This document shows, piece after piece, positions 202 to 44,392 of a stretch of 64,000 bases of DNA. Source of the stretch: Candidatus Peribacteria bacterium (GTDB taxonomy: Bacteria; Patescibacteriota; Gracilibacteria; Peribacterales; Peribacteraceae); contig JBEPVF010000002.1 in the NCBI GenBank assembly GCA_041691135.1, positions 1 through 64,000 of the forward strand, given 5' to 3'. The position numbers and the translations under genes are program-made. The notes under the pieces are model-generated. The model was not told the origin of the DNA and searched no databases. It saw nothing but the letters and a program-made list of their open reading frames with translations. Each line of letters begins with the position of its first letter. Position 1 is the stretch's first letter.

Positions 202-894
202 TCACATCCACCCCTTCACCTTCAACCCCGCCTTCGCCGCTGCCTGCTCGGCTTTTTGCTTCGAATTTCCGCTACCCAAAGCCACTTTTTCCTCGCCTAT
301 AAAAACGGCGCAGGTGAAGTTTTTATCGTGGTCGGGGCCTTCTTCTTCCACCACATCGTAATGCGGTGTGATACCCATACGCTCCTGCGATCTCTCTTGG
401 AATAAACTCTTCTCGTCACGGTGTTTGCCGCGGGCCAGCAGATCTTGCAGGTGATTCAGAATGAACCGTCCGCAGAAATCACGAGCGGCATCGAAACCCT
501 GGTCCAGATAAATGGCACCGATCAATGCCTCCAATGCATTGGCTAGCGTAGACGATTTATTGCGGCCATCACTGGCCTCTTCGCCGCGACTCATGAATAG
601 ATACTCGCCCAATTTAATTTCGCGCGAAATTTCGGCCAGGTGTTCGCCCTGCACCAACGCCGAACGCCAGTTGGTCAGTTCACCTTCGGACTTCTGCGAT
701 AAATGGAACAAGTAATCGGTCGTCGCAAGCTCCAGAACGGCGTCGCCCAAAAATTCCAACCGCTCGTTGTGGCCGAATGTATTGCGCTCCTTGACGGCAC
801 TGCGATGTACGAGCGCCTGGATCAGCAAATCTTTTTTGCGGAAATGTATGCCGATACTTTTCTCCAGAAGCGTGATGGGAGCGGGCTGAGCCAT
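202..894 (-). CDS. rnc: Ribonuclease III
   Basis: HNERLEFLGDAVLEL signature, C-terminal dsRBD (EGPDHDKNF...GSGNSKQKAEQAAA); ATG 894 is 6 nt after a TACACT -10 box. Confidence 0.97.
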   Translation of the reverse strand: MAQPAPITLLEKSIGIHFRKKDLLIQALVHRSAVKERNTFGHNERLEFLGDAVLELATTDYLFHLSQKSEGELTNWRSALVQGEHLAEISREIKLGEYLFMSRGEEASDGRNKSSTLANALEALIGAIYLDQGFDAARDFCGRFILNHLQDLLARGKHRDEKSLFQERSQERMGITPHYDVVEEEGPDHDKNFTCAVFIGEEKVALGSGNSKQKAEQAAAKAGLKVKGWM

Positions 895-985
895 GACTAA
901 AGTGTAAAGTACCACGTTGCCAGGGCCAAGTTTCAGGCAAGTGAAATTTGAGCGCTATAACCGAAGGGATTTTGCTGTTTGGCAC

Positions 986-1397: not shown

Positions 1398-1477
1398 GAA
1401 TGAAGAATGTAAAATTGACAATGTACAATGAAACTGGAGGCAGGAATTGTACATTTTACATTCTACATTGTACATTC
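1398..1477. repeat. Inverted 7-nt-period tandem array (AATGTAA-type)
   Basis: aatgaag aatgtaa aattgac aatgtac aatgaaa ... ttgtaca ttttaca ttctaca ttgtaca between rpmF and nusB. Confidence 0.85.
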
Positions 1478-9987: not shown

Positions 9988-10031
9988 AGGAGGACTCCGA
10001 AGATTCCGACGGCGCCGAAGAAACCGAAGAA
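9988..10031. repeat. Single arm of 9-nt-period array (AACCGAAGA-type)
   Basis: 10006-10027 is the exact reverse complement of 34290-34311. Confidence 0.8.
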
Positions 10032-26980: not shown

Positions 26981-27664
26981 ATGCTTCCCCCTGATCACGA
27001 AGAAGAACTCCACCGGCTGACTCAGATTTTCCTGGAGGAAAATTCGAAGATAAACCTCTCGGCCCTGCGCACAGAAGAGCAATGTTGGAACGGCAACATT
27101 CTCGACTCGCTCGCGTTCCTCGATCTGCTCCCAAAGCTTTCGACCAATCAACGCGTTAAAATTCTGGACATGGGAACCGGCGGCGGCTTTCCGTTGTTGC
27201 CACTTGCCATCTGCTTGCCGGACGCACAGTTGGTCGGCCTCGACAGTACGCAGAAAAAGATCGATGCCGTGCAACGCATTATCGATCCCATGAAAATAAG
27301 AAACGCGCAGCTGATCGCAGGGCGCGCCGAAGAGATTGGTCATCATCCGCACTATCGAGAGCAGTTCGACATCGTCACCTCGCGTGCGGTGGCCGAGATC
27401 AACGTGTTGCTTGAGTACTGCAGTCCGTTCGTCAAACCGGGCGGCACTATCGTCCTCTGGAAAAGCCTGACCGTCGAACAGGAACTGGAAGAATCGAAGC
27501 AGGCGCAAGTGCAACTCTATGTACCTTTCAGCGAGAGCTACCGCTATACATTGCCCGGCGACTGGGGCGAACGTCAGTTACTCGTCTTTCGCAAAGGTTT
27601 GTCGCCACTGCCAAAAAAATTCCCGCGTGATGTGGGAGTGCCGAAGAAAGACCCGCTCAAATGA
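26981..27664 (+). CDS. rsmG: 16S rRNA m7G527 methyltransferase
   Basis: ILDSL, DMGTGGGFP, GRAEE, REQFD.VTSRAVA. Confidence 0.94.
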   Translation: MLPPDHEEELHRLTQIFLEENSKINLSALRTEEQCWNGNILDSLAFLDLLPKLSTNQRVKILDMGTGGGFPLLPLAICLPDAQLVGLDSTQKKIDAVQRIIDPMKIRNAQLIAGRAEEIGHHPHYREQFDIVTSRAVAEINVLLEYCSPFVKPGGTIVLWKSLTVEQELEESKQAQVQLYVPFSESYRYTLPGDWGERQLLVFRKGLSPLPKKFPRDVGVPKKDPLK

Positions 27665-27750
27665 ATGTAAAATGTTCAATGTATAATGAACAATGGAGGC
27701 TGTTGCCTTTTAAAGCATTGTCCATTGTCTATTCTTCATTGTACATTCAT
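27660..27750. repeat. Inverted 7-nt-period array (AATGTAA-type)
   Basis: aatgtaa aatgttc aatgtat aatgaac aatg ... cattgtc cattgtc tattctt cattgta cattc. Confidence 0.85.
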
Positions 27751-31751: not shown

Positions 31752-32162
31752 ATGCAACCAGCCCTCCAAGTAAATGTTGCGATGCCGAACGTTCCCAGCT
31801 CTCTCGCCAAGGTGTGCGATAAGCTACGTTCTTCGGACGTGAACATTACGGCCATTACCTGTACCGAAGGAAAGGAACGTACGATCATTCATTTGATCGT
31901 AAACGATCCCGAAACGGCAAAGATCGTCCTGAAGGATTTAGGAGAAGTATCGACGACCTTCGTGCTGGGATTCCAGATGAAGAACAAACCGGGCGCCATC
32001 GCGACACTCGGTCGCGCCTGCTCCGTTGCGGGCATCAACATCCATAACATCTATGCCACGACATTTGGCAAAGAAGCGATGGTGTATGTATCAGTGGAAA
32101 ACATCGAAGAAGCGGTGAAGGCGCTCAAGAAGTGGGAGGAGGTGCAGGGGAAAGTTGATTAA
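31752..32162 (+). CDS. Tandem ACT-domain protein
   Basis: NVPSSLAKV...VNI and NKPGAIA...GINI repeats. Confidence 0.85.
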   Translation: MQPALQVNVAMPNVPSSLAKVCDKLRSSDVNITAITCTEGKERTIIHLIVNDPETAKIVLKDLGEVSTTFVLGFQMKNKPGAIATLGRACSVAGINIHNIYATTFGKEAMVYVSVENIEEAVKALKKWEEVQGKVD

Positions 32163-32710
32163 GAGGGAACCGAAGCAACCGATGAAACAGAGGATACGTT
32201 CTACAGGTATCCAGAACGTTATTTTTACCATTTAGAAGCCAAAAAATCTGCTGTTATCTTTGTTACATATTCTTTTAGTCACACAAAGGAAAAAGTGTTG
32301 AGTAGGATAAGGGCATGTCAGAAAACCATCATATTCGTCCGTATGAAAAGCTAATCGTATGGCGCGAATCGCATATATTATGTCTTCGTACTTATGAACT
32401 AACTACAAAATTTCCTAAACACGAAAGATTTAGATTGGTCGATCAAATGTGCAGAAGTGCCTACAGCGCACCTATGAATATAGCCGAAGGAAATATGAAA
32501 ATTTCAAGAAAAGAAAAACGTCGCTATTTCGAAATAGCCTTGGGATCCATTGAAGAACTGCACTATCAAATGTTTCTTGCGAGGGATCTCCATTACATTA
32601 CACCTGAAGAATTCAAAAGCATTGATGACCACATCCAGCGCGTCAGTTATTTGCTCACAAAGTTGCGTTCCGCTTTTTCGTCGGTTGCCTCGGTTCCATC
32701 GGTTTCCCTC
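32163..32710 (+). mobile_element. Putative IVS-like element: four-helix-bundle gene between inverted 9-nt-period arms
   Basis: Left arm gagggaaccgaagcaaccgatgaaacagagga (32163-32194); right arm tcgtcggttgcctcggttccatcggtttccctc (32678-32710); AT-rich interior. Confidence 0.6.
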
Positions 32711-32746
32711 AACAGAACAACAAACTCCACTCAATCCACTATGTAA
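32315..32746 (+). CDS. Four helix bundle protein (23S rRNA IVS/Avd-like family)
   Basis: YEKLIVW, FPKHERF.LVDQ..RSA.S...NIAEG, IALGS..E. Confidence 0.92.
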   Translation: MSENHHIRPYEKLIVWRESHILCLRTYELTTKFPKHERFRLVDQMCRSAYSAPMNIAEGNMKISRKEKRRYFEIALGSIEELHYQMFLARDLHYITPEEFKSIDDHIQRVSYLLTKLRSAFSSVASVPSVSLNRTTNSTQSTM

Positions 32747-34136
32747 TAATCCCTTTTTCGTCGTGGCTTTCGCGGAAGAAGGCGAAGGCGATGTGGATTC
32801 TGGGTTTTTCGGCGGCGAAGCGTTCGAGGATCGATGTGGTGATACGCGAGGTGACCGAACGGCGCTCGCCGATCGGGACGAGAAAACGTAATGTGAACAG
32901 AACGCCGCGGTCACCTATTTCGAGGAATACGCGCGGACCATGGGATTCGCGGGAGAAGTAGAAATGATGCGTGCGGGCCGCCTGCTGACGCTGCGCCTTC
33001 TGGAAATAGGCATCTGTCTCTTCCTTCAAGACCTGTTCCACGATCGTCTGCCCGCGCTGCCAATCGCTCTCGATCATCACGTAAAACTGCATCTGCGTTT
33101 CCAGGAAATCGGATGTCGTATTGTAGTTGCGCACCGATTCGCGCAGCACGCACGAGTTCGGCACCAACACCGTTTTGCCGGTGCGATGAATGTCATCCTC
33201 CGCCCGCGACGCAACTTCCATCAATGTTGTCCGCAGCAATCCGATATCGATCACATCACCCGTCACATCGCCGATGGACACGCGGTGTCCCAGCGAGAAC
33301 AGGCGACGCTGCAGAATGATCGCCCATCCGACGATGTCTTTGAGCACATCCTGCAAGGCGACTGCGATACCGGCACCCACGATGGCGAAGGACGTAATGA
33401 TATCTGGATGCTCCGACGACAGTTTGATAATCAGCCACAAGCCCACCAGCACGTAGATCAGGCCGGTGTAGATCTTCATCACCGCGTAACGACGGTTACG
33501 ATTCTTGATGGCCCGGAAGAGCGTCGTGCGTCCCAGGCGTTCCAGGAAGATAATGACCACGATGACCAGCATGTACTGACCAATTGTGATGAGCAGCGAA
33601 AATTGTTCGATTTGCTGCTGTTGCGTCAGCTTCTGGAAACGTTCCTGATGAAGCTTGAGAAAGAACTCGGTCGACGCCAATCGCTCCTCCAAAATCGCCT
33701 GCTGAGCCAGGAATTCAGGGTAACTCGCAGTGATGCGTGTCGAACCCGATGCCGCCGGCCGGCTGGCATTCAAATAGTACGTGCTGTCGCCTTTCAGCAG
33801 ATCCATATCAACCTTCGCCGCTTCGTCCCGTGACTGAAGCATGGTGACGACCGCCCGTTCCTGTTCGTAGGGAGTTTGCGTCGGATTCTTCTCGCTGCTG
33901 AGCAACGCATTGATCGAGTTGTTCAGTTCGTCATCAATCAGAACGCGCAACCGTTCGCGTTCGGTTGTAATCTGCTGCTGCACATAGGTACTGGCCGGGT
34001 TGCGCTGCAACGAGCTATACAGCTGCACCAGACGTTGATCATTGATAGACGCACCTTGTGCCAGCGCCAGAGGCGAAAGAGCCATCTGTAACGCGATGAT
34101 AGAGAGAATGCCTACTTGGATCGCTTTTTGCCTCAT
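32739..34136 (-). CDS. MscS-family mechanosensitive channel with N-terminal coiled coil
   Basis: GAGIAVALQD, GHRV.IG...GDVIDIGLLRT, VPNS. Confidence 0.88.
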   Translation of the reverse strand: MRQKAIQVGILSIIALQMALSPLALAQGASINDQRLVQLYSSLQRNPASTYVQQQITTERERLRVLIDDELNNSINALLSSEKNPTQTPYEQERAVVTMLQSRDEAAKVDMDLLKGDSTYYLNASRPAASGSTRITASYPEFLAQQAILEERLASTEFFLKLHQERFQKLTQQQQIEQFSLLITIGQYMLVIVVIIFLERLGRTTLFRAIKNRNRRYAVMKIYTGLIYVLVGLWLIIKLSSEHPDIITSFAIVGAGIAVALQDVLKDIVGWAIILQRRLFSLGHRVSIGDVTGDVIDIGLLRTTLMEVASRAEDDIHRTGKTVLVPNSCVLRESVRNYNTTSDFLETQMQFYVMIESDWQRGQTIVEQVLKEETDAYFQKAQRQQAARTHHFYFSRESHGPRVFLEIGDRGVLFTLRFLVPIGERRSVTSRITTSILERFAAEKPRIHIAFAFFRESHDEKGIIT

Positions 34137-34189
34137 ACAAGGATCATAGAGTAAATGGCGACTAAGTCATTCGTCTATAGGCTTTATAT

Positions 34190-34318
34190 GAAACCGACGG
34201 AACCGAGGCAACCAAGGAAACCGACGATTTTCAGATTGAAGATGCATCAGTGCAATAGACACTTCACGAAGAAATAAAAAGAAGCGTCATCGGTTTCTTC
34301 GGCGCCGTCGGTTCCCTC
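34190..34318. repeat. Gene-less inverted 9-nt-period array, same family as the arms at 32163/32678
   Basis: aaccgacgg aaccgaggc aaccaagga aaccgacga - ~58 bp spacer - tcatcggtt tcttcggcg ccgtcggtt ccctc. Confidence 0.88.
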
Positions 34319-41389: not shown

Positions 41390-41800
41390 GGGTGCTCCCT
41401 CACCCCGGCCCTCTCCCTCCTTGCCCACGCCGCAAAGGGAGTTATGACAGTTCGCGCATTACTCAGCAACAGAAACCTGCCGGGAGAGGGAGGTGTGTGC
41501 TCTATGTGTGTTGTGCCTAACGAAGCTCTCTCAAATAGTTCTAGGCGGCTACAGCCGCCGAGCCTCTTCGCACGTTCGCTATTCCAGGGAACAGTCCCTC
41601 CACCTATGTGGTGGGGATAGGTGGTTACGAACTGTGTCACAGCAAGCCGTTAGGCGCTGTGAGACAGTGAGGTGGGTCATAGGCGGTGCGCTTCTTTTTG
41701 GTTCTTTTTCTTGTCGCGGGGAGACAAGAAAAAGAACACCAGTGGTGATTGGGAAGGTTGGTGCTGAGGAATACCTCAGACACCGCAGCCGGGGACGGCT
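41390..41800. repeat. Composite REP-like palindrome cluster
   Basis: ccctcaccccggccctctccc...gggagaggga, ccacctat/ataggtgg, perfect 15-bp stem gttctttttcttgtc/gacaagaaaaagaac, ctgagg/cctcag, gcagccg/cggctgc. Confidence 0.75.
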
Positions 41801-44262: not shown

Positions 44263-44392
44263 AGGAAGTGACCGAGGTGGCAGAGGTGACAAAGGTGACC
44301 GACGATTGGAACGCAGAAGATGAAAGAGGAGTACTCCTCATAATCCCATCCTCTGCTTCCTCTGCCACCTCGGTCACCTCTGAATCTTCAGT
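44263..44392. repeat. Gene-less inverted 9-nt-period array (GTGACCGAG-type)
   Basis: gtgaccgag gtggcagag gtgacaaag gtgaccgac ... tctgcttcc tctgccacc tcggtcacc tctgaatct. Confidence 0.85.

Follow-up and report, generated by a model that had tools for sequence, protein, structure and literature searches.

The stretch analyzed here, the window, comprises 64,000 nt (positions 1 to 64,000, forward strand) of contig JBEPVF010000002.1 of a Candidatus Peribacteria bacterium (Patescibacteriota; assembly GCA_041691135.1). This assembly (1.74 Mb, 35 contigs, the window lying on contig C2) is designated G000; other genomes, contigs and loci carry G, C and L numbers. Between the genes for an ACT-domain protein and an MscS-like channel, the window contains a gene for a small four-helix-bundle protein of family PF05635 (23S_rRNA_IVP), enclosed by two mutually complementary arms built of tandem 9-nt units (Table 1). 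Gene and arms together are called the element.

The element and related hairpins in the window

The left arm directly abutted the TAA stop codon of the ACT-domain gene (32160-32162), whose ortholog in G001 had an equal C-terminal length. The right arm lay within the 3′ tail of the 143-aa open reading frame (ORF), past the end of the Pfam match, and the C-terminal tail of the protein is thus encoded by the arm. When the RNA from 32155 to 32720 (566 nt) was folded, left and right arms were paired in the minimum-energy structure. The motif AACCGANNNAACCGA, with at most one mismatch, occurred 8 times in the window compared with 0.33 expected, and none of 100 shuffles reached 8. The initial annotation had described a four-helix-bundle gene between complementary arms of 9-nt period and had found no transposase in the element. 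Sequence, PF05635 match and fold bore out the former; as to the latter, the sole ORF was that of the four-helix-bundle protein, with no transposase domain.

The PF05635 match covered residues 11-115 (E 7.6e-34; 116.6 bits, gathering cut-off 33.8). A solved homolog, PDB 2gsc (five chains in the entry), matched the protein with E 2.2e-17, and the calculated pI of residues 1-118 was 9.1. The bAvd profile scored 22.5, below its cut-off of 40. The accessible text of Zhang and Ye (2014) gives GxxRxxxSxxxNxxE as a conserved PF05635 motif; by reading, the translation contained RxxxSxxxNxxE (R-SAY-S-APM-N-IA-E), with Q at the position of the leading G. The 119-nt leader may hold a promoter or ribosome-binding site of the gene's own. 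This leader was unlike the situation in most relatives, in which the arm ended 17-45 nt ahead of the Pfam match. An Rfam scan of the window returned two tRNAs only and no match at the arms, and contigs of one DNA run, probably the source of this DNA, contained no variant, joint or empty-site form of the element.

Table 1 Features of the window that bear on the element
Feature	Position	Strand	Evidence or remark
RNase III gene rnc, candidate trans-acting nuclease for the stems	202..915	-	PF14622, E 1.8e-41 over 451-834
Gene-less hairpin, 7-nt AATGTAN family	1398..1476	.	Upstream of minus-strand ORF 986-1390, 8 nt from its start
Lone arm, AACCGA family	9988..10031	.	Followed by an unrelated G+C-rich hairpin
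Gene-less hairpin, 7-nt AATGTAN family	27661..27750	+	Stop codon of ORF 26981-27664 within the first unit
Upstream host gene, ACT domain	31752..32162	+	ORF; PF01842, E 1.5e-14
Left (5′) arm, GAGGG and three 9-nt units AACCGANGN	32163-32194	+	G-rich, C-poor; bracket alignment score 39
AT-rich leader, 119 nt, from left arm to start codon	32196..32314	+	Sequence reading
Four-helix-bundle gene, 143 aa	32315..32746	+	PF05635 23S_rRNA_IVP
Right (3′) arm, (NCNTCGGTT)n TCCCTC, complementary to left arm	about 32669-32710	+	Reading, bracket test, fold
Convergent host gene, MscS-like channel	32739..34136	-	ORF; PF00924
Gene-less hairpin, AACCGA arm family of the element	34190..34318	-	Loop of about 56 nt between arms 34190-34227 and 34284-34318
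Gene-less hairpin, related 9-nt family GTGACNGAG	44265..44382	-	Fold, repeat search

Gene-less hairpins with the same or related arms were present in the window. The copy at 34190-34318, first reported to share the arms of the element, proved to do so by reading and by fold. It began inside the stop codon of atpG (minus strand), with a folding energy of -58.9 kcal/mol (z -6.1) for the atpG sense strand compared with -47.9 for its complement. A copy with variant units, expected near 44263-44392, was confirmed as the hairpin at 44265-44382. A minus-strand ORF of 459 aa had its TGA (44388-44390) 6 nt ahead of this hairpin, for which, as for the atpG hairpin, the upstream gene's strand gave the better fold. 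All three two-armed copies had been placed at or within a stop codon: this held for the ACT gene and atpG, and the third lay just beyond. Gene-less copies of the GTGACNGAG family had their loop architecture in common. By reading, a U-run followed the 44265-44382 hairpin (minus strand), and none followed the 34190-34318 hairpin or the filled element. The lone arm had been linked to the atpG hairpin by a 22-nt match, which was present as a reverse-complement identity to 34290-34311 (by reading). The hairpin at 27661-27750 belonged to the arm family of a four-helix-bundle gene on contig C1.

Copies and hairpins in the rest of the genome

Bracketing was scored as the best local alignment between the 330 nt upstream of a PF05635 match and the reverse complement of the 330 nt downstream, with a cut-off of 29. 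G000 contained five PF05635 matches. One, an Avd copy on C8 beside a reverse transcriptase and linked to a diversity-generating retroelement (DGR), was arm-less (score 15); the remaining four were all bracketed by inverted tandem-unit arms (scores 39-53). The arm families were 9-nt AACCGA for the C2 element, 9-nt GTGACCGAG for that on C12, 7-nt AATGTAN for that on C1 and 7-nt CGAAATT/GCACGAA for that on C11.

All four arm families also occurred as gene-less hairpins elsewhere in the genome. A scan for inverted tandem-unit arrays, proposed in the initial annotation, yielded 32 gene-less hairpins compared with 0 in the shuffle null, with four families that match the four-helix-bundle genes. Arrays of at least three AACCGA units numbered 24, compared with 0 in a shuffled genome. 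Hairpins were found by a partner search seeded with Tandem Repeats Finder (TRF), which replaced exact-seed inverted-repeat and self-complement window scans; owing to imperfect arms, most tandem-unit hairpins had escaped these scans.

Several other features of the genome were observed. The region C8:9837-13289 is a DGR with the arm-less Avd-like gene and a reverse transcriptase (RVT_1); approximately 2 kb further on lies a canonical Y1 transposase gene. A 37-nt palindrome (window 41701-41737) had 15 identical copies across the contigs in either orientation, and close variants (for example, C2 103529 and 114672); it constitutes a separate, non-tandem family of dispersed hairpins. A second palindrome family, of 38 nt, had several members at contig ends (C1:260888, C2:114602, C11:55368, C16:39, C7:60) and probably breaks the assembly.

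Bracketed genes in other genomes

Of the 29 PF05635 loci from relatives in the same class, 26 scored at least 29, compared with 0 of 58 shifted controls. Across the phylum, the corresponding numbers were 21 of 28 loci and 1 of 53 controls; in Bacteroidia, a group reached via a Leeuwenhoekiella genome, they were 24 of 29 and 0 of 58. The three control sets together gave 1/169. All 10 plasmid loci also reached the cut-off (8 cyanobacterial, 1 from Gemmatirosa in the Gemmatimonadota and 1 from Azospirillum; flanks of 700 nt, no shifted controls). None of three Chloroflexi-type loci did (no controls run). The cut-off was reached by 4 of 23 small multi-copy GIY-YIG genes from the same relatives, with long non-tandem arms (controls 0/46). 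L003 (short contig) was left out of the class-relatives count, in which L009 is the C12 copy of G000 itself; 3 of 32 Bacteroidia loci (<3,250 nt) and 7 of 30 GIY-YIG loci (<3,190 nt) were also left out.

Arms were compared in 45 armed loci; L003, L067 and loci <3,200 nt were left out of these and of the position, mismatch and strand counts below. Units had a period of 7 nt in 31 loci, of 9 nt in 9 loci and of 8 nt in 4 loci. G exceeded C in the 5′ arm of 43/45 loci, and since the two strands of an inverted repeat read the same, a transcript in either direction has its G-rich arm ahead of the other. At one locus (L012, G029:C4) the inverted repeat aligned from the flanks was of unusual length (136 Watson-Crick positions when scored more loosely). 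The ORFs often continued through the C-rich, stop-poor 3′ arm (window 32660-32746; L008, L017, L025), and these extensions were Ser/Val/Pro/Thr-rich tails outside the PF05635 domain.

Position relative to host genes

Host ORFs (≥100 aa) ended beside the left arm in 33 and beside the right arm in 30 of the 45 armed loci, and host stop-to-arm distances clustered between about -20 and +25 nt. For the gene-less hairpins of G000, the stop codon of a crude-called gene was found within -30 to +15 nt in 18/32 cases, mostly at 0-6 nt, compared with 4% when placed at random and 17% when placed at random in non-genic sequence; the early suggestion that empty copies sit at stop codons is upheld by these numbers. 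Some gene-less hairpins extended over the entire spacer as far as the following start codon. Where the flanking host genes were co-directional, the four-helix-bundle gene was in sense orientation in 19/22 cases in Patescibacteria and 14/15 in Bacteroidia (33/37 together). Convergent contexts numbered 13 and 4, and divergent contexts 3 and 0, respectively. The unit is located in transcribed spacers, at or a few bases from the stop codon of a host gene, and is usually sense to it.

The cyanobacterial plasmid loci (including L151, L153, L154 and L155) had the gene at nrdB/nrdA, cas6/cas4 (two genera), cmr2/cmr3 and transporter genes, with five sense and three antisense copies. In the accessible text of Zhang and Ye (2014), 18 23S_rRNA_IVP genes in cas loci are interpreted as cas-associated. 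A selfish cassette that inserts into operon spacers would explain the same data. One further candidate function, translational insulation by stop codons in all three frames, was rejected: only 43/90 arms had such stops when read inward, compared with 20/90 when read outward, and the 9-nt families failed.

Arms, proteins and turnover at orthologous sites

The sharing of 6-mers between arms increased with protein similarity in 77 armed elements of three groups (Mantel r 0.19; 0 of 2000 permutations reached this value). Restricted to cross-group pairs, the correlation was 0.12; the permutation figure belongs to the full set. Elements of different families, and even phyla, shared the unit type along with the protein subfamily. 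Arms are therefore inherited and transferred together with the gene, as the sequence comparisons indicate. Together with the bracketing of all four non-DGR copies in G000, this association agrees with the original proposal that gene and arms form one unit.

The orthologous element between obg and dnaK in G000 and G002, the one alignable pair, had arms that were 71-76% identical, an interior non-coding sequence that was 56-62% identical and a gene that was 67% identical. We interpret this pattern as a constraint that acts on the sequence of the arms. A plausible cause would be that the protein of the element recognizes them. Within the arms of this copy (L072, G000 C1:219410-219488), we observed a promoter-like site (TTGACC...TAAAAT) and a CIRCE-like repeat for dnaK, both conserved in G002.

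Orthologous junctions varied in content. The junction upstream of proS was occupied by a filled (GAGGTGACC)n element in G000, by a gene-less (GATTGCAA)n hairpin immediately following the TGA in G004 and by a gene-less (AAAGGGN)n hairpin in G002; thus, three species had three unrelated unit families. Of the ACT-mscS junctions, whose comparison had been suggested at the outset, that of G001 had neither the gene nor these arms. The obg-dnaK spacer retained the element in G002 and contained two unrelated ORFs in G003. The same spacer in the congener G004 (L080, C10, 1440-2190) carried a GIY-YIG gene between inverted arrays of approximately 21-nt period. These arrays had the C-rich arm first, a polarity opposite to that of the four-helix-bundle elements.

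Dependence of the hairpins on the gene

Hairpins were counted in eleven genomes with and without PF05635 genes (Table 2). The five genomes without the gene had 1 hairpin in 1,194 kb, whereas the six with the gene had 1.8-14 per 100 kb. The contrast was also found within families (G005 vs. G000, G008 and G014; G061 vs. G033 and G088), and the ranges of G+C content of the two groups overlapped. Gene-less hairpins of the same arm families occurred only where such genes occur, in agreement with the association of empty copies with the gene claimed initially. This co-occurrence argues against terminator repeats owned by the host and for a coupled system. The number of PF05635 copies ranged from 0 to 24 among close relatives, and a genome contained a dozen or more unit families.

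Table 2 Census of PF05635 genes and tandem-unit hairpins
Genome	PF05635 genes	Hairpins	Sequence (kb)	Null
G005	0	1	299	
G021	0	0	295	
G061	0	0	200	
G052	0	0	200	
G047	0	0	200	
G014	8	30	300	
G008	9	32	300	
G088	7	28	200	5
G033	4	10	200	3
G053	3	10	200	
G000	4	32	1,740	

Relation to rRNA intervening sequences

In anatomy, the element of the window corresponds to an rRNA intervening sequence (IVS) of the ORF-bearing kind, located between protein genes. In IVS of the type known from Leptospira, Coxiella, Xanthomonas and Brucella, a PF05635 (S23p) ORF likewise lies in the loop of a long inverted-repeat stem, short units are repeated in tandem in the 5′ arm (heptamers next to the start codon), the ORF is sense to the host transcript and the distribution is patchy. 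According to the accessible part of Warrier et al. (2016), the Coxiella 23S insert holds its S23p ORF in such a loop, with two or three tandem heptamers just ahead of the start codon, at the RNase III site, and the number of heptamers differs among strains. The Azospirillum plasmid locus, which has the same tandem-heptamer arms, lay within large-subunit (LSU) rRNA (model positions 575-1962). With this locus and the Coxiella heptamers, the likeness to ORF-bearing rRNA IVS drawn in the initial annotation is substantiated.

The two differ in location and in detail. The element of the window directly follows the stop codon of a protein gene rather than interrupting an rRNA helix, and has a unit period of 9 nt and a leader of 119 nt between arm and start codon. 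The rRNA IVS are excised by RNase III without re-ligation, and G000 encodes rnc as a candidate nuclease for the present stems. G000 had no LSU rRNA match in its assembly, and the element lies outside rRNA, with ACT-domain and MscS-like genes as flanks. An assembled LSU gene was present in 11 of 31 relatives, and in none of these did a PF05635 match fall inside it. The available text of Tsurumaki et al. (2024) reports a few 23S_rRNA_IVP ORFs in rRNA inserts of the candidate phyla radiation (CPR), and that text uses neither "hairpin" nor "inverted repeat".

The LSU genes of G018 (C7:35995-40580) and G007 (C29:19818-24735) spanned 4.6-4.9 kb compared with 2.9 kb for the model, and therefore contain large inserts. 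No PF05635 match of these genomes lay in the inserts; a GIY-YIG match (G007:C29:21824-22039) was located inside one of them.

Comparison with other repeat systems

Sequences of the short tandemly repeated repetitive (STRR) type from heterocystous cyanobacteria, in the accessible text of PMC2670836, are 7-bp tandem units that form hairpins in the intergenic spacers of operons; no function is known, and effects on transcript stability or coupling are proposed. The window contains similar tandem-heptamer hairpins (1398-1476 and 27661-27750), and the arms of PF05635 genes on cyanobacterial plasmids are such heptamer arrays. STRR differ in being described as gene-less and from one cyanobacterial group, whereas the present host is not a cyanobacterium. 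The searchable literature contained no description of a bracketed PF05635 gene outside rRNA, linked no PF05635 gene to STRR and no STRR to rRNA IVS; primary STRR papers and closed supplements may bear on novelty.

Miniature inverted-repeat transposable elements (MITEs) and REP/REPIN-RAYT systems (repetitive extragenic palindromes, REP doublets forming hairpins and REP-associated tyrosine transposases) resemble the present elements in being extragenic and in consisting of many short gene-less inverted-repeat copies and few gene-bearing copies with shared ends. Here, however, the gene-bearing copy has no recognizable transposase, and the arms are short-unit tandem arrays instead of a unique terminal repeat. 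The empty copies had been called MITE-like, a comparison that fits in the arms shared with a gene-bearing copy and fails in that this copy encodes no transposase. A repeat flanking its own Y1 gene, by which REP/REPIN are recognized, was not found, as the Y1-like genes on C1 and C11 of G000 were flanked by other, non-tandem repeats. These Y1_Tnp-like genes (C1:268227-268832 and C11:30423-30953) encode approximately 150 aa, each within its own 22-28-nt inverted repeats, a layout that resembles RAYT/REP.

Avd, the accessory protein of DGRs, has a related small, basic four-helix-bundle fold and a role linked to nucleic acid. Unlike Avd, the gene of the window had no adjacent reverse transcriptase and no pair of template and variable repeats; most genomes with PF05635 lacked RVT_1, and the DGR-linked Avd copy of G000 had no arms.

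Interpretation and alternatives

The observation made in the initial annotation was confirmed, and its interpretation is partly supported. We consider it probable that the element is a selfish cassette of the rRNA-IVS type residing in mRNA spacers, with gene-less, non-autonomous derivatives that resemble STRR. The unit consists of a 5′ arm of tandem 7-9-nt units (G-rich, C-poor), the PF05635 gene and a complementary 3′ arm, and would be transcribed as part of the host mRNA. RNase III may then cut the 25-45-bp stem, by analogy with rRNA inserts in which cleavage was shown experimentally. Such a cut would set free the mRNA of the four-helix-bundle gene and divide the host transcript at little cost. 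The protein, probably pentameric, may recognize the unit that is repeated in its own arms and may somehow maintain or spread both full and gene-less copies, the latter being presumptive non-autonomous derivatives equivalent to the STRR hairpins of cyanobacteria.

Several observations weigh against this interpretation. Mismatches in the arms showed no G.U excess on the gene-sense strand (80 vs. 62 in total; 15 vs. 17 loci), and selection at the RNA level is therefore not proven; the arms, approximately 79% Watson-Crick, suit decaying DNA repeats equally well as RNA stems. Some copies were antisense (C12 in G000, 4/37 co-directional cases, 3/8 cyanobacterial plasmid loci), and the C1 copy lies between the divergent genes obg and dnaK, with the dnaK promoter-like and CIRCE-like site in its arms. 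According to the accessible text of Warrier et al. (2016), the Coxiella ORF is decaying and its protein probably not made. The bracket cut-off of 29 was picked after the first control set had peaked at 28, and was then left unchanged. The hairpin census used one pipeline for all samples, and its eleven genomes are related and not independent. Finally, PF01797 (Y1) was present in 23/31 relatives and agreed with the presence or absence of PF05635 in 27/31 (21 with both, 6 with neither).

This last agreement is the reason to keep help in trans by Y1 as the main rival, albeit an unlikely one: the hairpins would be REPIN-like single-stranded DNA elements moved by an IS200/IS605 or RAYT-like transposase, with the PF05635 gene as cargo or accessory. 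The location of two of the four Y1-like matches in G000 (C1 and C11) between inverted repeats and the lack of a strand-specific G.U signal in the arms also suit this explanation, but those repeats are not tandem-unit arms, and a dozen or more unit families per genome would be hard to serve by few transposases. Moreover, G047 has a Y1 gene and neither hairpins nor PF05635, G020 and G028 have PF05635 and no Y1 match, a Y1 match is also missing from G212, which has an armed locus, and no association was found in Bacteroidia (21/25 vs. 12/16). A reverse transcriptase copying hairpin RNA into DNA with the protein as an Avd-like cofactor looks weak, and we judge it very improbable. PF05635 is related to Avd (weak bAvd match) and a DGR-type reverse transcriptase is encoded on C8, yet this is the only RVT_1 match in G000 and stands beside the arm-less copy. 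RVT_1 was found in only 7/31 relatives and was missing from 17/23 PF05635-positive ones, including G014 (8 copies and 30 hairpins in 300 kb), which makes spread by reverse transcription unlikely.

Two further explanations, to each of which we give little credence, assign the hairpins to the host. If each paralog bound its own repeat family after stop codons, and thereby set mRNA stability, termination or translational coupling, one would understand why hairpins begin 0-6 nt past stop codons and sometimes fill the spacer to the next start, why each of the four genes in G000 pairs with one hairpin family and why arm sequence is conserved along with the protein; roles in transcript stability or coupling have been proposed for STRR hairpins (PMC2670836, accessible text). 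A regulon of this kind is difficult to reconcile with the proS junction, where three species have three unrelated unit families and one of them the gene, with other junctions that are empty or contain other inserts, with copy numbers of 0 to 24 among close relatives and with the same element inside rRNA and in cas, nrd and ABC-transporter operons. Alternatively, the hairpins could be ordinary REP-like terminators or stabilizers in whose loops the gene lands or survives, since gene-less copies outnumber filled ones by approximately 8 to 1 in G000, U-runs follow some hairpins, and orthologous sites retain a hairpin while its sequence changes. Yet hairpins were essentially missing from the five genomes without the gene, the small GIY-YIG genes of the same genomes were rarely bracketed, and arm type tracked protein similarity between genomes and phyla, which is not expected of hairpins owned by the host.

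The selfish-cassette interpretation can be extended, more tentatively. PF05635 proteins may be sequence-specific readers of tandem 7-9-nt repeats, with approximately one subunit of the ring per unit, and may form with their hairpins a transposase-less class of mobile elements, bounded by RNA or DNA hairpins, in at least five phyla. We regard this extension as possible but doubtful.

Significance

PF05635 is a large family of unknown function, named after a handful of rRNA inserts. To our knowledge, the STRR repeats have had no explanation since their first description. If the extended interpretation is true, the decisive question would be whether the protein binds its own repeat and RNase III cuts the stem, which a single experiment could address. 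The catalogue of mobile units would gain one without a recognizable recombinase, and a natural, portable RNA-excision cassette would be at hand. One kind of element would then cover the ORF-bearing IVS of rRNA, the STRR of cyanobacteria and the "cas-associated" 23S_rRNA_IVP genes in CRISPR and other operons, and PF05635 genes would have to be annotated as insertions in operon spacers instead of operon members.

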